From the NCBI RefSeq assembly GCF_011045215.1, contig NZ_CP049201.1: 64,000 nucleotides of DNA; one strand, given 5' to 3'. Each line of letters opens with the position of its first letter. Position 1 is the first letter of the stretch. Origin of the DNA: Escherichia coli (GTDB lineage: Bacteria > Pseudomonadota > Gammaproteobacteria > Enterobacterales > Enterobacteriaceae). The position numbers and the translations under genes are program-made. Positions 210-64,000 of the stretch are shown piece after piece. The notes beneath the pieces were generated by a model that was not told the DNA's origin, did no database searches, and was given only the letters and a program-made list of their open reading frames with translations.

Positions 210-2357
210 TTATTTTTTGCTTTCTTCTTTCAATACCTTAACGGTATAGCGGCCATCAGCCTGACGGTATGCACCGTGAATATCGGTTTCAAAGCCCGGA
301 TAGTGAGCGCCGATTTCACACAGCATCTGCAGGAACTCCAGAACCGGACGGCTTTCTTCGGTGATCATTTCACCCGGCATTACCAGAGGAACTCCCGGCG
401 GATATGGAAGGATCATATTGGCGTTAATACGACCTACCATTTCGTCGAGGTAAACTTCTTCGATCATACCGTGCAGCTCTTTCTGGAACGCAGCATACGG
501 AGTCATTACCATTGTCGGCAGCACTTCAAATGCGCGATACATCAGATCCGGCAGATTGTGGTGAACAATCCGTTTGTGGATATTCTGAGCCAGTTCCTGA
601 ATACGCATGTTTTCATAGAATTCAGGATCTTCACGATACAGAGACGGCAGCATGTTTTTCACACGCAGGTTCAGGTCGAACGCACGTTTGAAGTCAGTCA
701 GAGCACGCAGCAGGCTCAGTGCTTTGGTCTTATCGATACCGATGCTGAACAGGAACAGCAGGTTATACGGACCGGTTTTCTCAACAACGATGCCATGTTC
801 GTCGAGGTATTTCGCCACGATGCTGGCCGGAATACCAAAGTCGCTCATGGTGCCGTCTTTTTCCATCCCCGGAGTCAGCAGGGTGACTTTGATCGGGTCA
901 AGATACATGTGCTCGTTATCGATGTTTTTGAAGCCGTGCCAGGTGCTGTCAGAACGCAGCGGCCAGCATTCAGTCGTATCGATATGATCCGGCTGCCAAA
1001 CATCAAAGAACCAGCCATCAGATTCCGTTCTCAGACGTTTGATCTCTTTACGGAATTTGATCGCACGTTCAATGGAACCGTTGATCAGACGCTTACCAGC
1101 ATTACCTTTCATCATCGCCGCAGCGGTTTCAGTGGACGCCACGATACCGTAGTGTGGAGAAGTGGTGGTGTGCATCATGTAGGCTTCGTTAAAGGTTTCT
1201 TCGTTTACGTCACCTTTAACGTGGATCATGGAAGCCTGAGAGAACGCCGCCAGCAGTTTGTGAGTAGACTGGGTTTCGTAAATCACTTTCCCTTCTACAC
1301 GGCCACCGCTCATACCGCATTTACCTTCGTAAATCGGTGAGAAGTTGGTGTAAGGCACCCACGCGGAGTCAAAGTGGATGGATTTCACATCCAGTGTTTT
1401 CTTGATGAAGTCGGTGTTGTACAGCAGACCATCATAGGTAGAGTTAGTAATTACAGCATGTACCGGCCAGGTTGCGTTTGGTGTTTCCTTCACGCGCTTA
1501 GCAATGGTAGCGTGCTGGAATTCACTCTGTGGGATACCACCAAGAATACCGTAAGCGTTACGGGTCGGGCGGAAATAGATTGGCGTAACATCGCTCATCA
1601 TCATCAGGTGGGTCAGCGATTTGTGGCAGTTACGGTCAATCAGAATGGTGCTGCCTGCTGGAGCAGAGTACATACCAACAATTTTGTTCGCAGTGGAAGT
1701 ACCGTTGGTCACCATGTAGCTGCGGTCTGCGTTAAAGACGCGAGCGATATACTGTTCTGCTTCTTTGTGTGGACCACTGTGATCCAGCAGAGAACCCAGT
1801 TCAGATACTGAAATGGAAATATCAGATTTCATGGTATTCGGACCAAAGAAATCATAGAACAGGCTACCTACCGGGCTTTTCTGGAATGCAGTACCGCCCA
1901 TGTGACCAGGAGTACAGAAAGTATATTTACCTTCACGAACATATTTAAACAGTGCTTTAGTCAGCGGAGGCAGAATAGTGTTGATATATTCGTCAGTGGT
2001 CTGCTTGATCTTGTTAGCAATATCTTCAGCAGCACCTAGCGCATATTCAAAGAAGCTAATCTGTAAACGCAGGTCATTCAGGCTTACATCGAGAGTGGAA
2101 TACGTATTAGCGAACGCGTACAACGGCAGGTTCTCGTTCATTTTGCTAATTTCTTCGCACAGCTCGAGATTATATTTATCCCAGTCAAAAATAACGCCGC
2201 ACAGACGCGCATTGTTTTCGATCAGTTTTAATAAGTCGTCACGGTCGTTCGGGTAAACAATCTGGAAGTTCAGACGTTCAAGCGCGCGATGAAGTTCACG
2301 GATGGGTTCTTCTTTAAAATAAACCCCCATGTGATTCAATATTGCAATAACGTTCAT
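210..2357 (-). CDS. cadA: inducible lysine decarboxylase CadA (PLP-dependent)
   Basis: 715-aa ORF whose N-terminus MNVIAILNHMGVYFKEEPIRELHRALERLNF and overall sequence I recognise as E. coli CadA. GGAG sits 8 nt upstream of the ATG at 2357; the ORF-track start at 2396 is an upstream in-frame ATG adding 13 aa. Confidence 0.93.
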   Translation of the reverse strand: MNVIAILNHMGVYFKEEPIRELHRALERLNFQIVYPNDRDDLLKLIENNARLCGVIFDWDKYNLELCEEISKMNENLPLYAFANTYSTLDVSLNDLRLQISFFEYALGAAEDIANKIKQTTDEYINTILPPLTKALFKYVREGKYTFCTPGHMGGTAFQKSPVGSLFYDFFGPNTMKSDISISVSELGSLLDHSGPHKEAEQYIARVFNADRSYMVTNGTSTANKIVGMYSAPAGSTILIDRNCHKSLTHLMMMSDVTPIYFRPTRNAYGILGGIPQSEFQHATIAKRVKETPNATWPVHAVITNSTYDGLLYNTDFIKKTLDVKSIHFDSAWVPYTNFSPIYEGKCGMSGGRVEGKVIYETQSTHKLLAAFSQASMIHVKGDVNEETFNEAYMMHTTTSPHYGIVASTETAAAMMKGNAGKRLINGSIERAIKFRKEIKRLRTESDGWFFDVWQPDHIDTTECWPLRSDSTWHGFKNIDNEHMYLDPIKVTLLTPGMEKDGTMSDFGIPASIVAKYLDEHGIVVEKTGPYNLLFLFSIGIDKTKALSLLRALTDFKRAFDLNLRVKNMLPSLYREDPEFYENMRIQELAQNIHKRIVHHNLPDLMYRAFEVLPTMVMTPYAAFQKELHGMIEEVYLDEMVGRINANMILPYPPGVPLVMPGEMITEESRPVLEFLQMLCEIGAHYPGFETDIHGAYRQADGRYTVKVLKEESKK

Positions 2358-2436: not shown

Positions 2437-3771
2437 TTAATGTGCGTTAGACGCTGTTTGGTTATCCATTGAGTGGCTCTGGCGCTCGTGCATTTTGCGA
2501 GCGTAGAACATCAGGATAATCAGGCTGACGATGAAGGTACCTGCCAGCTCGAAGGAGCTTGCGCCCATCAGCGCGATGAAGCAGAACACGCAACCCAGTA
2601 CAGAGCAGATCAGGCTGACAAAGTTGCGGATGTTAACGCCTTCAAAACGAATCAGGTCAACGCAAGAGTAGAAGTACGGCAGCATAGTCAGCAGTACTGC
2701 GATACCGGTCAGTTCACCGAACAGGTCAGATGCTTTACCACCGGCAGAGTTCATCAGAGTGATGAGGATCATCAGGGCAGTCATTTTCACTGCAGCCAGC
2801 AGCAGACCTTTTTTCGGAATACCGTTGCTGTCGACTTCACCATAAACTTTCGGGAAGTTACCGTCGTTAGCGGCACGTACACCTGCCTGGCCTACCAACA
2901 TCATCCAGGAGCCCAGAGAAGTCAGGCACGCAAAGGCGGTGAATGCAGAAACCAGCGGCGCAGCCCAGTTACCGAGGATAGTTGAAGCACTGATTGCAAA
3001 CGGAGCACCGGAAGCCGCCATTACAGAAGACGGATACATACCGGAAAGCACCTGAGTCGCAGCGATGTAAACAATACCTGCTAAACCAGTACCCAGCATG
3101 GTTGCCAGCGGAACGGTACGTTTCGGGTTTTTAACCATACCAGTACTTACAGCTGCGGATTCAACACCCACGAAGGCCCACAGGCAGAGCAGAATACTTT
3201 TAATGATCGCATGACCATCAGTGGTATCCGCAGTATTCCAGTTAGCTGCATAAGTTGCCGCATCAAACCAATGCCAGCCAACAATAGCAGTCATCACCAC
3301 AGGAATAAGAACCAGCACCAGACCAATAGTGGTTAAACGGCTTACCCAGGTACCGCCGAGCATATTTACAAAGGTAAATACCCAGACGATAGCAATACAG
3401 GCGATACCCGCCGGAACAGGATCATTTAATACTGGGAAGAAGGTGGAAAGATAAGATACAGCGGTAATACCAATCGCCAGGTTACCAATCCAGTTAGCAT
3501 GGTAATAAAGAACACCTGTCTGAAAACCAAATGCAGGGGAAATTTCTCCGGCATAAGCAATTGGGCCACCTTGTTGCGGGTTTTTTGTTGCCAGTCGGGC
3601 ATATACATACGCCAGCGACATTGCACCAATAATAGAGATAATCCAACCCCAGATAGCAATACCACCGATACTTGCTAGGTTCGCAGGTAATAATGCAATA
3701 CCGCTCCCCATCATATTACCGGCAACAACACCGGTACAGGCAAATAGCCCGATCTTCTTGGCAGAACTCAT
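2437..3771 (-). CDS. cadB: lysine/cadaverine antiporter CadB
   Basis: 444-aa polytopic membrane protein (MSSAKKIGLFACTGVVAGNMMGSGIALLPANLA...), APC-family permease, directly upstream of cadA in the canonical cadBA arrangement. AGGAG RBS before the ATG. Confidence 0.93.
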   Translation of the reverse strand: MSSAKKIGLFACTGVVAGNMMGSGIALLPANLASIGGIAIWGWIISIIGAMSLAYVYARLATKNPQQGGPIAYAGEISPAFGFQTGVLYYHANWIGNLAIGITAVSYLSTFFPVLNDPVPAGIACIAIVWVFTFVNMLGGTWVSRLTTIGLVLVLIPVVMTAIVGWHWFDAATYAANWNTADTTDGHAIIKSILLCLWAFVGVESAAVSTGMVKNPKRTVPLATMLGTGLAGIVYIAATQVLSGMYPSSVMAASGAPFAISASTILGNWAAPLVSAFTAFACLTSLGSWMMLVGQAGVRAANDGNFPKVYGEVDSNGIPKKGLLLAAVKMTALMILITLMNSAGGKASDLFGELTGIAVLLTMLPYFYSCVDLIRFEGVNIRNFVSLICSVLGCVFCFIALMGASSFELAGTFIVSLIILMFYARKMHERQSHSMDNQTASNAH

Positions 3772-6439: not shown

Positions 6440-7315
6440 ATGAACATTCTGCCCGTTGTGTCCACCAAAGGTGGCGAAGGAAAATCAACCCAGTCTGCTA
6501 ACCTTGCCGGTTTTCTGGCGGATGCCGGCCTCCGTACCCTGCTGATAGACGGAGACCATGCCCAGCCCACGGCAAGCAATATCTTTCCGCTGACGTATGA
6601 AGCGCCGGCCGGTCTTTTTGAATTACTGATGCGCACGGCTGACCTCAGTCATCCCGACAACATCATTTCCCGCACGGCTATCGACGGCCTTGACCTGATA
6701 GTCTCCAATGACCCCCATGAACAACTGAAAACGGCCATGCTTCATGCGCCGGATGGTCGTCTCCGTCTGCGTAATGTGCTCCAGCATCCGCTTTTCCAGA
6801 GCTATGACGTCATTGTGGTGGATTCACAGGGCGCGCGTTCCGTCATGCTGGAAATGATTGTGCTGTCTGCCACGGAGTCTGTGGTGGGGATGGTGAATCC
6901 GGTTCTGCCGGATGTGCGTGAGTTCATTCGCGGCACAGTCAATGTCATGGAAAACCTGTTGCCCTACCGTGAACTGGGTATCCCCCTGCCGAAAGTCCGC
7001 ACCCTGGTTAACTGCATGGATTATACGGCGCTGGCCAGACAAACACTGGCGGAGCTGACCGACATTATTAACTCCGGTCGCTACAGCAAAGTGCTTCCGG
7101 AAGGCGCGGTCACCCTGCTTTCAACACAGATTTATGACCTGAATATTTACAAACAGGGACACGCAGCCGGCCAGCCGGTGCACCGCCTTGAAAAAGCGTC
7201 TGCCCGTCGCAGTGATTCTGCGCTGGTCACCATGCACAGCCTGGCCTGTGAGTTGTTGCCGGAGTGGAGTGAGTTTTTTGATGTACTGCTGGAAAACGGA
7301 GGTGAAAGCCTGTGA
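6440..7315 (+). CDS. ParA/Soj-family partition ATPase
   Basis: Deviant Walker A KGGEGKST near the N-terminus (MNILPVVSTKGGEGKSTQSANLA), then LLIDGDHAQ. AAGGA RBS 9 nt before the ATG at 6440. First gene inside the island, as in soj-terminal ICEs. Confidence 0.85.
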   Translation: MNILPVVSTKGGEGKSTQSANLAGFLADAGLRTLLIDGDHAQPTASNIFPLTYEAPAGLFELLMRTADLSHPDNIISRTAIDGLDLIVSNDPHEQLKTAMLHAPDGRLRLRNVLQHPLFQSYDVIVVDSQGARSVMLEMIVLSATESVVGMVNPVLPDVREFIRGTVNVMENLLPYRELGIPLPKVRTLVNCMDYTALARQTLAELTDIINSGRYSKVLPEGAVTLLSTQIYDLNIYKQGHAAGQPVHRLEKASARRSDSALVTMHSLACELLPEWSEFFDVLLENGGESL

Positions 7316-53101: not shown

Positions 53102-53763
53102 CGTGCTGGCCTGAGGCCAGTTGTTCTATGCAGGCATCCTGCAGATGCCATGATTCTTTACTTACAGGCTTATCACGCCTGCATATCAATACGTTAAGTC
53201 TTTCAGAGACATGTCTGAACGAACTGACGTCTTTAATCTGTTCGGGCATTCGCCCCGGGCTTCTTACGACTGTACGCACTGCATAAGGCCATCTGAAATC
53301 TGGCCGCTTGCGTGCGTATGTGGAGTTTGAAGCTGCGCGGCGTCACTTTTGTCGGCGTGTAACGATGACAAAGTGACGCATGCGCGTCTGCTTTACGAAC
53401 CCGCACAAACCGTCGCGTCACGGGATGTTTTTTAACATTTGAAGAAGTGACCAGACGTGAGAGTGTTTTTTCAACCTTCTCTGCAAACGTACAGACGATA
53501 CCGTGAATAACGTTCATCGACCGTTCTTCTTGCAGAATTTTATTGTTTTTTAAGGAGTTTTATGTAGTGAGATGCCGAACCGGCGATACCACTTATTAGG
53601 GGTGGTATCGGGGGCGACCTGGAAACAGGTACAGCGAATGCTGCAGTCGGTGTGCAACACCGGTTTGTTACCCCTCAATACCTAAACAGTCTGCGCTACC
53701 CTGGCGCTCAGGCACTCATTACCCGAAGGATCGCAACGCTTAACCGTGTCGCCAGGGAGAATG

Positions 53764-53850: not shown

Positions 53851-54753
53851 GTGTCCAGACGTGAAAAATTACTGAAACAGGATTTGGTTGCTCATATCCG
53901 GAAAGACCGGGGGAGTTTCAAGAAGCTGAGTGACTATTCCCGGATCATGCACCGGTTTGCGGAAAGACTGGCTAAACTGAATATACAGATCAGTTCTGCT
54001 GCGCAGGTAAAAGTGCGGCATATTGAATTATATATGAACAGCAGGAGTGATGTTTCAAAGCGAACCAGAGAAAATGAAATGTCTGCAATACGGGTTATGT
54101 TACGTCAGGCCGGTAAACATAAAATGGCAGATCCTGAACATCCCCGTCTCAGCAATAAGGCGTTAGGTATTTCAGGAGGAAGCCGTAAAGGGACAAAGAA
54201 ATTAATTACGGATGAGCGTTTCCGGGAAATTCTTCAGCGCGTGGAAGCAAAAGATAAAGGGGTGGCAGCTGTTGTTAAACTGTCACGTTATCTCGGTCTG
54301 AGAAATGAAGAAGCTGTCCAGTCGGCCAAATCGTTACGGACGTGGAAAAAAGCGTTACAACGGGGAGATGAAAAAATAAGGGTGATTTTTGGTACGAAAG
54401 GGGGACGGGAAAGAATGACGACGGTTGTTGACCGGGATAAAGTTCTTGATGCTGTTAATTACGCACTCAAATATGCCAGTGAGCATAATGAACGTCTGAT
54501 AGACAGAGATAATCTTAAGTCGGCAATGGATTATTATCTTAATACGTTACGACGTTATGGAGAACTGAAAGGCGGAGATGAAACCGCACACAGTTTTCGG
54601 TACAGTTACGCCGCAAGTGCCATGAAATATCATATTATGAATGGTTACAGTTATAAGGAGGCACTTGCACTGACATCAATTGATCTTGGTCATGGTGATG
54701 GCAGAGGTCGATATATTGAACAGGTTTATTGTCAGTTATTAGGCTATGAGTAA
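53851..54753 (+). CDS. tyrosine site-specific recombinase (phage-integrase/Xer-like catalytic domain)
   Basis: GTG start with GAGGAGG RBS. Catalytic-domain boxes: LSRYLGLRNEEAVQ (box I Arg), HSFRYSYAASAM (H-x-x-R), GHGDGRGRYIEQVY (catalytic Tyr). Confidence 0.65.
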   Translation: MSRREKLLKQDLVAHIRKDRGSFKKLSDYSRIMHRFAERLAKLNIQISSAAQVKVRHIELYMNSRSDVSKRTRENEMSAIRVMLRQAGKHKMADPEHPRLSNKALGISGGSRKGTKKLITDERFREILQRVEAKDKGVAAVVKLSRYLGLRNEEAVQSAKSLRTWKKALQRGDEKIRVIFGTKGGRERMTTVVDRDKVLDAVNYALKYASEHNERLIDRDNLKSAMDYYLNTLRRYGELKGGDETAHSFRYSYAASAMKYHIMNGYSYKEALALTSIDLGHGDGRGRYIEQVYCQLLGYE

Positions 54754-59811: not shown

Positions 59812-60504
59812 ATGGCCACCTTTATCGACCATCAGAAGGCCTTCATTTCGCTGTTTAATCAGACCGCCCGTTATCACAAACGCCATAAGGTGTTTGAAGA
59901 CTTTGTCAGCTGCAGTGTGATTGCCCTGGAGAACCGGCTTCAGTTCAGTGAGGCACGGGAGCAGAAGTACCTGCGAATCGTCAGTGGTTATGAAAAGCAG
60001 GATGTTATCAACATGGCGCATTTGCTTGCTCATGTCATTGAGGGACTGGAGCAGGGATTCTGTGACTTTCTGGGCAGCGTGTTCATGCAACTGGAGCTGG
60101 GGGATAAATACCGGGGCCAGTTTTTCACGCCCTGGAGTGTGGCCAGAATGATGGCACAGATGCAGCTGGGGAATGTGACGACGCTGTTTGAGAACAAGCC
60201 CTTTATCACGCTCCGTGAACCGGCCTGTGGTGCCGGCAGTATGATACTGGCTATGGCTGACACCCTGAACCATTCGGGATATCCGGCATATCGCAGGATG
60301 TGGGTGTCGGCAACGGATATTGACCCGCTGGCAGCCGGCATGGCGTATATACAACTGTCGCTGTGTGGTGTGGCCGGTGAAGTGGTGATTGGCAACTCAT
60401 TGTGTAATGAGCGACGCCGGGTACTGCTGACGCCCGGGCATTACCTCGGGAACTGGTCATATCGTCTGCGTCATTCTCAGGAACAGGTCACAGCTGATGC
60501 CTGA
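59812..60504 (+). CDS. short methyltransferase-like protein: HsdM-type SAM-binding motif without the NPPF/Y catalytic motif
   Basis: REPACGAGSMILA (motif I-like) and ..ATDIDPLAAGMAYIQLSLCGVAGEVVIGNSL, but the ORF ends about 30 aa later and is followed by a clean terminator. Confidence 0.45.
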   Translation: MATFIDHQKAFISLFNQTARYHKRHKVFEDFVSCSVIALENRLQFSEAREQKYLRIVSGYEKQDVINMAHLLAHVIEGLEQGFCDFLGSVFMQLELGDKYRGQFFTPWSVARMMAQMQLGNVTTLFENKPFITLREPACGAGSMILAMADTLNHSGYPAYRRMWVSATDIDPLAAGMAYIQLSLCGVAGEVVIGNSLCNERRRVLLTPGHYLGNWSYRLRHSQEQVTADA

Positions 60505-60517
60505 TTTTTTATCACTA

Positions 60518-60549
60518 CGCCAGTCTTCGGGCTGGCGTTATTATATTTG
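60518..60549 (+). terminator. rho-independent terminator
   Basis: CGCCAGtcttcgggCTGGCG followed by TTATTATATTTG. Confidence 0.6.
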
Positions 60550-60863
60550 CGTTGCTTGTTATTGGGGGCGGTTTCTATGTACGTCAGGAGCATTTTTAAA
60601 CCGATGTGGATAAGTAACTGATTGATTCATCGTGATCAGCTATCGCTTCTAAGTTATTGCTTTTCTCTTATCGCATTTAGGTTATCTCATGTCCCTAAAG
60701 GTCTGCCAAACACCGTATAGCGTGGGAGTACACCCTACCGCGATAACGTAACCGTACAATATTGTACGTTTCCCAAACGCAGCTCTGTGGGGGAAATTTG
60801 GGTTAAGTATCGACCGGTGTATGATAGGGCAATATTTAACCAGAGAAATTAAAAGGATTTGTT

Positions 60864-63089
60864 ATGTCTAAGCCGGAAAACGGCCAACAGCTGCCCGCCA
60901 TCTGTTGGCCGGTGCCTAAAAATAACCGGGGCGGGGAGTTCAGTAATCTCGAGGAGATGTTGGCGCATCTGGAGGGCGAGGCCACCGGGCACTGGCTGAT
61001 TGGCCGTAATGGTATGTGGCACGGGGGAATTCATATCACGGATATCACGACTCCGTGGTGTGCGCTCAGCGGTCAGTCGATGAATGAGGCGGTGGATTTT
61101 CCTGTGCCGTTTAAGGGAGAGCAGCCCGTGCGCTGCATGGCGGATGGTGAGGTGGTGGCGTACCGGATAAACCGGGATTCTCTCAGCGTGCCGTGGTACT
61201 GGGGGGATTTACACTACTCCGGGTCTTTTGTACTCATTCGCCATCGTATTCAGCCAGGGGAAACGGCAGAGAGCGGGCTGACCTTTTACACCCTGTATAT
61301 GCACCTCGCGCCCTGGCTGGCTTACCCGGAGCAGGACAGTACGGCGTTTAAGGTCGCAGACAGACAGTATCTGAATGCGTATGCGGACGCGTCCCGGCAG
61401 TGGGTGGTGGCAGAGTTGCCACCCGGTACACGTGTGATATGGGACAAAGCGGTAAGTGCAGACACCATGACAGGGAGCAACGGTCGGCAGTATGCGCGCG
61501 TTACGCTGGCGGAGCCGGTGACGGGCAGGATGAACCTGAACGCCGGAGACCGGGTATGGACAGTATGCGATAAAGGGAATCTGGTTCCGGTTCGTGACAG
61601 TATCATCCGTCCGGCGTGGTGGTCGCCGTTCCTGCCGCCGTCACGCGAAACGGTACAGTTTGATACGGTGGTGTGTCCGACACCTTACCCGATTAAAGCC
61701 GGTGCCCCGGTGGGGCATCTGGGCTATTTTCAGGTACCCACGGATAACGGGCATGAAAAACGCTATCAGGTGCATATCGAATGCCTGACAACGGACGACC
61801 TGCCGCGCTTCCTGAGCAACCCGGAAGGTGTGGGGCGTGACACTCCCGCCTTTGCCCGTTGTCCGAAGGATATACCGGTGTATCTGAAATATACGGACGG
61901 AGAAATACACAAGAGCCTGGTAACCACGGAGAGCGAAACGGTGATGGCGCTGTCAGGTCAGGTGGTGACGGACAAAGAGGGTAAACGCTACTGGTCGGGG
62001 GGAGGGGTATCACGCGGACTGCTGGCGGAGTCAGATGTGCAGTTGTTATCCAGGTATGACCTGGCTGACCGGGGTTTTGAGGCCACGGAGGATAACCCGG
62101 TGAGCTTTGACCATCTCGACGGAAAGAGACAGCCGAAGGGGCTGGTGAGGACGATTTTTGAGCGTTTTTTCAACGTGGCGGATAATGACGGTAAGCTCTA
62201 CAGCAAAATAGTGGCATTCAACTACCGGCAGCTGCTGGACCAGATTGATGACGCCAAATCCCCCCGGTATAACCCGGAACTGTACCGGCGCGCGGTACAG
62301 AACCCGTCAATGCGTGAGCATCTGTATCGTTTGTGCGTGAAACATCCCAGCGAGTGGTATTACTCGTCGGAGTCTTCGGTATGGAAAGCATTTTTTACGC
62401 CCCAACTGAAAAGAGACGCCACGGAGTGGTACGCCTACAGTATGAAATTTTTGACGGATCTCCGCTGGATGTACCGTGTGGCCGGAATGGTGGAAAATCC
62501 GTGGCATATGCACCCACTGGTATTTCTTGATGCTATTAATGATATAGGTATGACTCTCGATGAAGCCAGAGTTCGGGCATTTATGAGAATGATTCGAGTT
62601 GGCGAAGGGACTGTTGGTGAGGTTGGGTATGAAACATTGTTTGGTAAGCAGTCATTCATAAAAGATTATCATAAAGATTTTAGTGATCACCCGAACATAA
62701 TAATTACTAGAGGTACATTAAAGTCTTCTGCGGCTGGAGCATATCAAGTAATGGGTTATACATGGAATGATCCTAACATGTTGTTTTATCGCAAAAAATA
62801 TGGGATCGTGGATTTTTCTCCGAAATCACAAGATGAGTTTTGTGTGCTAATCCTTAAATATAAAAGGAAAGGGGCTTTAAAACTTATCATTGATGGTGAC
62901 ATTGATGGGGCTTTAGATATTTTGAGTTACGAATGGGCAAGTCTTCCCCCTGCCAGATACCCTCAACCAACCAAGAGTAAGAGTGAGGTTATGTCCTTAT
63001 ACAATAAGTATTTATTAGAAGAGCTCTTAGGGGAGACAGATCTTCACCTGCCAATCGGCTACATAAAACAAGTTTATAATGGTGTGTAA
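60864..63089 (+). CDS. two-part protein (741 aa): GC-rich N-terminal region fused to an AT-rich C-terminal lambda-lysozyme-R-like lytic transglycosylase domain; candidate peptidoglycan-targeting toxin or bacteriocin
   Basis: The C-terminal ~170 aa align with recalled phage lambda R: GEGT (catalytic Glu), FSDHP, KSSAAGAYQ, DFSPKSQD, KGALKLIIDGDIDGALD, WASLP. Base composition changes sharply near 62550. The N-terminus has HxH-type motifs (WHGGIHIT; YMHL) of uncertain meaning. Confidence 0.6.
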   Translation: MSKPENGQQLPAICWPVPKNNRGGEFSNLEEMLAHLEGEATGHWLIGRNGMWHGGIHITDITTPWCALSGQSMNEAVDFPVPFKGEQPVRCMADGEVVAYRINRDSLSVPWYWGDLHYSGSFVLIRHRIQPGETAESGLTFYTLYMHLAPWLAYPEQDSTAFKVADRQYLNAYADASRQWVVAELPPGTRVIWDKAVSADTMTGSNGRQYARVTLAEPVTGRMNLNAGDRVWTVCDKGNLVPVRDSIIRPAWWSPFLPPSRETVQFDTVVCPTPYPIKAGAPVGHLGYFQVPTDNGHEKRYQVHIECLTTDDLPRFLSNPEGVGRDTPAFARCPKDIPVYLKYTDGEIHKSLVTTESETVMALSGQVVTDKEGKRYWSGGGVSRGLLAESDVQLLSRYDLADRGFEATEDNPVSFDHLDGKRQPKGLVRTIFERFFNVADNDGKLYSKIVAFNYRQLLDQIDDAKSPRYNPELYRRAVQNPSMREHLYRLCVKHPSEWYYSSESSVWKAFFTPQLKRDATEWYAYSMKFLTDLRWMYRVAGMVENPWHMHPLVFLDAINDIGMTLDEARVRAFMRMIRVGEGTVGEVGYETLFGKQSFIKDYHKDFSDHPNIIITRGTLKSSAAGAYQVMGYTWNDPNMLFYRKKYGIVDFSPKSQDEFCVLILKYKRKGALKLIIDGDIDGALDILSYEWASLPPARYPQPTKSKSEVMSLYNKYLLEELLGETDLHLPIGYIKQVYNGV

Positions 63090-63527
63090 ATGAAAAATAT
63101 ATTCCTTATATTGATATTTGTATCATCATTTACTTATGCTGGTTCTGATTTTGGAACTTGGGGAACATCATGTGATGATAATGGGTTCATTCTTTCATTA
63201 AAAGAAGATTCATCTCCATTTGTTGTTAGTGATAATCAGATAGTTGTATCCATACATTCAAGAAGGATTAACCATAAAGTTATTGATGTTTTTTTTGATG
63301 ATACATTAGATCTTGGGATAGGAGGCATGGGGTTTAACTGGGGGGATGTTGATAAAACCAAAAAAATAGCCGAGTTAACATATTCTGAAAATAATAAATG
63401 GCTGATGAAATGGTTTGGTTTTTGGGATGCAAAAAAAAAGACACGTTTTTGGGTGAAAGAGCCTGATTTTATCCAAACATACGCAAAAAATAACGTCATA
63501 ACATTGATTAAATGCGAAGAACAGTGA
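63090..63527 (+). CDS. AT-rich secreted small protein (145 aa); candidate cognate immunity protein
   Basis: ATG overlaps the upstream stop (TAAATG); signal peptide MKNIFLILIFVSSFTYAG; same low-GC composition as the lysozyme-like domain. Confidence 0.5.
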   Translation: MKNIFLILIFVSSFTYAGSDFGTWGTSCDDNGFILSLKEDSSPFVVSDNQIVVSIHSRRINHKVIDVFFDDTLDLGIGGMGFNWGDVDKTKKIAELTYSENNKWLMKWFGFWDAKKKTRFWVKEPDFIQTYAKNNVITLIKCEEQ

Positions 63528-64000
63528 TGGTTTGACTGCAATGGCTAAATTGAGGCAGCAATAATTTCAGGAAAACAAAAATGATCTTCTTGAGATCCTT
63601 TTTTCTGAGAGTAGTTTCTTGTCCTGTAAATGAAAAAACGCCGGAAGGCGGGTTGGTTCGGGTTCGTTGATCTACCAAATCTTTGAAGCTGGGCGGTAAC
63701 AGGACTCTATGTGGGAGACAGTTACCAATACATTATAGTACTTCCCAGTAATCTGCTGATCAGACCGGGCCAGCCAGAGATGCAGGTCGGTGATGATCAA
63801 CCGTCGTATACGAATCTGTATGGTGTTGAGCTGCTGTCCCGATTTAGTATCAGACTGGATGTAGTGAATCTGTTTTTCCGGACGAGCATTTCATGGTGAA
63901 TTGTCGTGGTGTTATATTAAAGTGTTGTCTGAAAAGATAGACAAAGTAGGATGTACTGGAATAGCCACATTTTTCAGCAACGTGTTTCACTGAGTATTTC

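Follow-up and report, generated by a model that had tools for sequence, protein, structure and literature searches.

Truncated remnant of a ColE1-type replication control region downstream of a toxin/immunity cassette in an ICE of Escherichia coli

A short segment (63576-63739) close to the right end of the 64-kb stretch of E. coli DNA analyzed in this study (referred to below as the window) is very probably a truncated, non-functional relic of the replication control region of a ColE1-type plasmid, which forms the tail of a captured bacteriocin-plasmid piece of approximately 3 kb. The segment is homologous to the RNAII-promoter/RNAI copy-control region of ColE1-type plasmids, with which it shares 76-90% identity. 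The plasmid-derived block that it terminates (60790-63739, + strand; ~2.95 kb) is collinear with small ColE1-type, Rop-encoding bacteriocin plasmids and comprises (i) the toxin promoter, (ii) the toxin gene, (iii) a candidate immunity gene and (iv) the 5′ part of the replicon. It is separated by a spacer of 110 nt (63740-63849) from the stop codon of a gene encoding a YdeO-like regulator of the AraC family, the 3′ end of which (63850-64000, − strand) runs off the window.

Homology to ColE1-type plasmids

The sequence 63530-64000 was used as the query in a sensitive BLAST search of 72,556 plasmids. This analysis revealed matches in 2,312 PLSDB records, including 2,093 small mobilizable plasmids, all of them restricted to positions 63568-63739 (identity of 74-84%). 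The 5,426 complete E. coli genomes searched contain 656 matching places, 649 of them on plasmids and 7 on chromosomes. The closest match found anywhere is plasmid p3 (5.9 kb) of E. coli EC14, with approximately 90% identity over 63576-63728. The RNAI family of Rfam (RF00106) sits under the matched stretch in p3, colicin plasmid p7, Erwinia plasmid pJE05, pRHB39-C14_4 and ColE1, and the plasmid RNAIs score 47.2 (locus L001), 45.0 (L002), 40.2 (L003), 61 (L006) and 73.8 bits (ColE1). The rop gene is annotated in four of these five relatives (p3, p7, ColE1 and pRHB39-C14_4; not pJE05), in three of which it lies about 750 nt downstream. The RNAII of ColE1 begins 555 bp upstream of the origin; its 5′ end is the target of the antisense transcript RNAI, and the kissing complex of the two RNAs is stabilized by Rom (PMC11012335).

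An alignment of six sequences (the window, ColE1 and four other plasmids) shows that the window and the plasmids have in common the GGATC..GATCC hairpin, the RNAII −35 box, a −10-like box, the RNAII start and the entire block complementary to RNAI. The putative remnant of the RNAII (primer) promoter (63590-63617, + strand), predicted from this alignment upstream of the RNAI-complementary region, consists of TTGAGA (63590-63595) and TAGTTT (63612-63617), which we take to be the −35 and −10 hexamers by reference to the ColE1/pMB1 sequence. The −35 hexamer is identical in all five plasmids, the −10 hexamer aligns with plasmid TAATCT, and the spacer between the two measures 16 nt, compared with 17 nt in ColE1. 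Position 63616 is polymorphic among the copies of the integrative conjugative element (ICE) that contains the segment, being either T or C (TAGTTT/TAGTCT). A promoter scan was uninformative for the window, since it also missed genuine ColE1 promoters. The predicted promoter is followed by the start (~110 nt) of the region of the RNAII primer transcript (63626-63739, + strand), as delimited by the ends of blastn matches to the plasmids.

Both of the inverted repeats to which an earlier note on this DNA had drawn attention are present where it had placed them. The first (GATCT/AGATC, 63583-63587 and 63593-63597) has arms of 5 bp, a loop of 5 nt and a run of T residues at 63599-63604; the second (GGTAACAG / CAGTTACC, 63695-63702 and 63719-63726) is complementary at 7 of 8 positions. 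Perfect 5-bp hairpins are no more frequent than expected by chance in shuffles of the same 471 nt (2 observed vs 2.9 ± 2.0), and arms of 8 bp with at most one mismatch were observed 10 times vs 5.3 ± 3.4 in the shuffles, 13% of which reach 10. The two repeats are therefore of significance only because they are homologous to conserved hairpins of ColE1, and not as bare repeats. The first corresponds to a ColE1 hairpin plus T-run (63583-63604, + strand), which falls in invariant columns of the six-sequence alignment and overlaps the RNAII −35 box. The plasmids contain GGATCTTCTTGAGATCC at this site and the window TGATC..GATCC, with the loss of one G-C pair. In ColE1 the equivalent hairpin, located directly after the lysis gene, was recognized as terminator-like at 594-616 (+ strand) in a terminator scan, and the window copy could provide weak termination of the toxin/immunity operon. 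The second repeat is the stem of RNAI stem-loop 1, the one nearest the RNAI 5′ end.

Truncation of the replicon and decay of RNAI

In blastn comparisons with four plasmids, i.e. in every plasmid tested, the homology ends at 63728-63739, approximately at the 5′ end of RNAI. The CTTCAAG block common to the plasmids is absent, so that the RNAI −35 region is missing, and the alignment shows that a downstream segment of RNAII (CAGTTACCAGTGGCTGCTGCCAGTGGCG), conserved in all five plasmids, is also absent from the window. No homology to the remainder of RNAII (~450 nt in ColE1), to the site of the RNA-DNA hybrid and RNase H cleavage or to the origin was found past 63739, either in the window or in the extended loci, and neither of them contains a match to the plasmid rop regions. 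No other ColE1-type sequence was identified elsewhere in the 64-kb window or within 10 kb beyond it (loci L009, L010 and L012). The break at about the RNAI 5′ end has thus resulted in the loss of the RNAI −35 region, the rest of RNAII, the RNase H/origin site and rop, and the fragment therefore cannot prime replication. Inspection of the junction itself (63739/63740) revealed no IS end, target duplication or recognizable site-specific site. A perfect TATAAT on the minus strand (63734-63739) directly precedes the former RNAI 5′ end, at a site occupied by ACAGAT-like sequences in the plasmids; its −35 partner was lost at the breakpoint.

The RNAI gene itself (63630-63733, − strand) is a decayed pseudogene, as judged from its match to RF00106, its folding and its broken base pairs. 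Its match to the Rfam model surfaced only in a narrow, permissive scan, with a score of 14.7 bits (E 1.9) that lies below the gathering score of 47, compared with 40-74 bits for the plasmids. A search of 60000-64000 at E ≤ 1 returned no Rfam matches. STnc130, PinT and snoRNAs, which also appeared with weak scores in the permissive scan (E 1.3-8.7), were discarded as noise.

The minimum free energy of the window RNAI (−18.2 kcal/mol, z −0.37) is no better than that of shuffled sequences, whereas the RNAIs of the five plasmids adopt a three-stem-loop fold of −39 to −56 kcal/mol (z −4.1 to −7.9). Compared with the RNAI of p3, the closest one that appears functional, the window copy carries 12 differences, 7 of them at paired positions. 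As a result, 6 of 35 pairs are broken and none is compensated, and the terminator stem contains a 2-nt deletion. The terminator scan (5 or more pairs in the stem, 3 or more of them G-C, then a T-run) did not detect the RNAI terminator in the window and returned no sites at all in 63400-64000; the same scan detects the RNAI terminator in both p3 and ColE1, as well as the upstream hairpin in ColE1. The RNAI copy of the window has lost the three-stem-loop fold on which kissing with RNAII depends.

The toxin/immunity block and its ICE context

The segment 60790-63601 aligns in a single piece of 2,812 nt (93.9% identity) to plasmid pRHB39-C14_4 (L006, 2388-5199), and two parts of the block, 60791-62537 and 63576-63728, are respectively 93% and 90% identical to EC14 p3. 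The first gene of the block (60864-63089, + strand) encodes a bacteriocin-like toxin of 741 aa, identified by blastp and by a PDB match. Its N-terminal part of approximately 555 aa is common to a gene of p3 annotated as 'M23 family metallopeptidase' (89% over residues 32-586 in blastp; ~93% at the nucleotide level), and its residues 571-703 match phage lambda lysozyme (PDB 1AM7/3D3D, E 6e-18). The G+C content drops from ~58% to 33% at about 62450, within the toxin gene. The swapped C-terminus and downstream gene in comparison with p3, the lysozyme match and this drop in G+C content together constitute the signature of a polymorphic bacteriocin-like toxin with an exchanged toxin/immunity module. 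No match to the whole 741-aa toxin was found in Pfam and NCBIfam. The N-terminal ~550 aa are also encoded by 120-kb plasmids, where they are annotated as 'calcium sensor EFh'. In addition, the N-terminal part is the most polymorphic segment of the ICE copies, with 7.2 variable columns per 100 nt vs 0-3 elsewhere.

The candidate immunity gene (63090-63527, + strand; 145 aa) also follows the toxin gene on pRHB39-C14_4. By inspection of its sequence, the N-terminus of the predicted protein is hydrophobic, which suggests export. The 3′ flank of this gene (63528-63575, + strand) is still collinear with pRHB39-C14_4 and lies inside the 2,812-nt alignment.

Searches of the plasmid collection, of complete E. 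coli genomes and of species-representative genomes returned nothing similar to the spacer 63740-63849; a single metagenome match was rejected as a chance 22-mer in unrelated high-GC DNA. Beyond it, the earlier description of the region as containing only short ORFs on either strand fails for the minus-strand ORF 63850-64000, which is the C-terminal HTH domain of a genuine AraC-family gene (Pfam HTH_AraC, E 5e-10). The full gene (246 aa) is present in the extended loci L009-L018 (e.g. L011, 10761-11501), and its product scores 185 bits with the YdeO model of NCBIfam (NF007407), below the cut-off of 348 bits. No close match to the 63850-64000 stretch was found in the 5,426 complete E. coli genomes. 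The gene is convergent with the toxin and immunity genes and is the first of the next block of ICE cargo. The proposal that another module might start here was thus loosely right, in another sense than was meant, as a new cargo module of the ICE begins at 63850.

To the left of position 60548, the window contains ICE backbone (a DUF1281 gene and an N6-methylase gene) that is 97% identical to chromosomal elements of many E. coli. In the assembly collection, 180 blocks list a protein identical to the immunity protein. Ten extended loci, on contigs of 70-440 kb, display one gene order: ICE genes, DUF1281, methylase, toxin, immunity, a gap of 322 nt and the AraC gene (minus strand), followed by genes for an EAL protein, a GH2 glycosidase, an MFS transporter, a 414-aa ORF and an autotransporter. 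At its end in locus L012 the ICE encodes a UvrD-like helicase, a TraI_2 relaxase and an integrase, and adjoins yqgA, speC and tRNA-Phe, the flank being 99.6% identical to E. coli.

The same junctions are fixed in many strains: they are identical in 21 loci of other E. coli assemblies, in which the window tail is 97.9-100% identical. An alignment of 11 sequences contains variable sites at 5 of 164 nt of the fragment, 2 of 110 nt of the spacer and 4 of 151 nt of the AraC segment, and singleton changes in the former RNAI stems of the ICE copies are uncompensated. The fragment is thus no less variable than either of the two neighboring segments, which is only weakly indicative of neutral drift, given the small counts and a choice of loci that was based in part on an identical immunity protein. 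An empty site was not found, and wherever the identical AraC protein occurs the cassette accompanies it at a constant distance.

Inactivation of the cassette was observed in several E. coli assemblies (L020, L021, L024, L025 and L029). In some strains the immunity ORF is cut to 51-66 aa, including by a deletion of ~58 nt (63394-63453), and some carry an IS66 element in the toxin gene (62694-62701) or an element of the IS110 family upstream of it (60754-60760).

Two further segments of the window were found to have relatives on plasmids. An unannotated non-coding element (60578-60792) closely precedes the toxin gene. The IncK2/Z plasmid CP027378 carries a version with 93% identity, which lies between a 202-aa ORF (3052-3660) and a fragment which, on reading its sequence, we take to be that of an IS66-type transposase. 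The element is present in 1,762 PLSDB plasmids, mostly conjugative, often in 2-3 copies, and at 76% identity it also occurs just beyond rop in the ColE1-type colicin plasmid p7. Its interpretation as a structured single-strand (Frpo-like) element was unsupported by folding (z −0.7 on both strands). If 60578-60792 came with the plasmid piece, the missing part of the donor would be exactly RNAII-3′/ori/rop; it may equally be ICE DNA. The second segment (53366-53460) is ~73% identical to the region after rop in pRHB39-C14_4 (6522-6616) and in EC14 p3 (1886-1977). It contains an inverted repeat GCGTCACTTT..AAAGTGACGC plus a repeated AAGTGACC and is followed, after ~400 nt, by an Integrase_1/Phage_int_SAM_2 gene (53851-54753). 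The ICE and small plasmids may have a site for recombination or transfer in common here.

Origin of the fragment and comparison with known plasmids

According to the explanation that we favor, a piece of ~3 kb of a small bacteriocin plasmid, carrying the promoter, the toxin gene, the immunity gene and the start of the replicon, would have recombined into the cargo region of the ICE, downstream of its orphan N6-methylase gene, with a break inside the plasmid replicon. The toxin and immunity genes would have been kept, and the leftover copy-control fragment would hitchhike with them and decay, its RNAI copy having accumulated uncompensated stem-breaking changes after the capture. Transfer probably occurred from plasmid to ICE, since a replicon fragment makes sense only within a plasmid and almost every match in complete E. 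coli genomes is plasmid-borne. The junction was presumably generated by recombination. The fragment seems to lack any residual function, and its structural decay argues against residual roles.

Three other readings of the region were considered. The suggestion that it could be a degraded mobile-element end proved partly correct: it is a degraded remnant of a mobile element, but the element is a ColE1-type plasmid replicon and not an IS, transposon or integron end. It is extremely improbable that the inverted repeats represent the end of a degraded IS or transposon, or the boundary of some other mobile element. Short inverted repeats are indeed present, and copies of IS66 and IS110 occur in or beside the cassette in some strains; however, the latter are inserted elsewhere, at 60754-60760 and 62694-62701, and the repeats, which do not exceed chance expectation, are internal hairpins, 5-16 nt apart, of 164 nt of DNA homologous to the ColE1 copy-control region. 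The earlier note had proposed to extend the sequence and to search it for an adjacent transposase or integrase. None is located next to the region in the extended loci, transposase genes are absent within 10 kb downstream in all ten of them, and the only integrase in the extended sequence is that of the ICE itself, ~7 kb off at the end of the element (L012).

It is also unlikely, though the least so of the three, that parts of the fragment have been co-opted, with the RNAII promoter driving a plus-strand antisense transcript into the YdeO-like AraC gene, or with the hairpins terminating the toxin/immunity operon and the AraC gene. The −35 hexamer TTGAGA is the same as in the plasmids and the −10 hexamer (TAGTTT/TAGTCT), at 16-nt spacing, keeps the T-A---T positions, so that a transcript toward the AraC gene, which is convergent and only ~230 nt downstream, is conceivable. 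As regards termination, the equivalent ColE1 hairpin and T-run are terminator-like and directly follow the lysis gene, and a minus-strand remnant of the RNAI terminator (CGCC..GGCG+T6) is located ~200 nt past the AraC stop codon. Both hairpins of the window nevertheless fail the terminator scan, the first having one G-C pair fewer than in the plasmids and the stem of the RNAI terminator being down to 4 bp, and hitchhiking fully explains the arrangement.

We consider it very improbable that the fragment has been retained for a function in trans, in which an RNAI-like RNA made by the ICE would pair with the RNAII of incoming related ColE1-type plasmids and block primer formation, resulting in incompatibility or plasmid exclusion. 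Cloned RNAI genes reportedly exert incompatibility in trans, a result said to go back to Tomizawa and Itoh in 1981. The RNAI-complementary block shares 90% identity with its counterpart in EC14 p3, a plasmid that bears a toxin gene, the TATAAT just upstream of the former RNAI start makes some RNAI-like transcription conceivable, and the fragment has been kept with identical boundaries in 21 loci. Constant boundaries, however, are predicted by common descent alone, and the fragment is no more conserved than the adjoining non-coding DNA. Furthermore, the RNAI −35 region was lost with the end of the homology at 63739, the three stem-loops no longer form (z −0.37), the Rfam score is far from the gathering score (14.7 vs 47), 6 of 35 pairs are disrupted, and the terminator stem, with its 2-nt deletion, fails the scan. 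There is an equally slim chance that an antisense RNA from the ICE remnant, or a decoy 5′ fragment of RNAII, interferes with the priming of p3-type plasmids bearing rival toxin alleles; if true, this would couple the toxin/immunity cassette to the exclusion of competing toxin plasmids.

Read as a decaying hitchhiker of plasmid origin, the fragment opens no new mechanistic question. It serves as a provenance marker, indicating that the toxin/immunity cassette of the ICE was captured from a ColE1-type bacteriocin plasmid, and it documents the traffic of polymorphic-toxin cassettes among small Col plasmids, large conjugative plasmids and ICEs. It also calls for caution in annotation, as replicon-typing or RNAI-based tools could take such relics for plasmid sequence in draft assemblies. 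A search of the literature on ColE1 remnants in ICEs, or on this bacteriocin, returned nothing relevant.

Among the known plasmids, pRHB39-C14_4 (CP057065.1; 6,678 bp; Rop-encoding) matches the window in its 741-aa toxin, its 145-aa immunity gene and the sequence that follows the latter as far as the RNAII −35 box, and its toxin and immunity ORFs are located directly before its RNAII promoter. It differs in that its RNAI is intact (61 bits) and belongs to another sequence type, and in having a complete RNAII region and rop; beyond 63601 the similarity of the window is to the RNAI type of p3 and p7 and not to that of pRHB39-C14_4. Plasmid p3 of EC14 (NZ_JBXRYN010000004.1; 5,894 bp) contains the nearest RNAI/RNAII-5′ sequence and the same N-terminal ~550 aa of the toxin, but differs in the C-terminal domain of the toxin, in having a different, oppositely oriented immunity gene, in its functional-looking RNAI (47.2 bits, z −4.4) and in the presence of rop.

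The feature is the well-known RNAI/RNAII control region of ColE1, in the form of a truncated, pseudogene-like remnant. Its collinearity with the ColE1/pMB1 control region spans the GGATC..GATCC hairpin, TTGAGA, the RNAII start and each of the three RNAI stem-loop segments, and the replicon piece is placed identically relative to the bacteriocin/immunity (or lysis) gene in ColE1, p7 and pRHB39-C14_4. In contrast to the ColE1/pMB1 region, the window copy is truncated at the RNAI 5′ end, has lost the RNAI structure and is located not on a plasmid but inside an ICE, which is chromosomal in at least one strain (tRNA-Phe/yqgA/speC).
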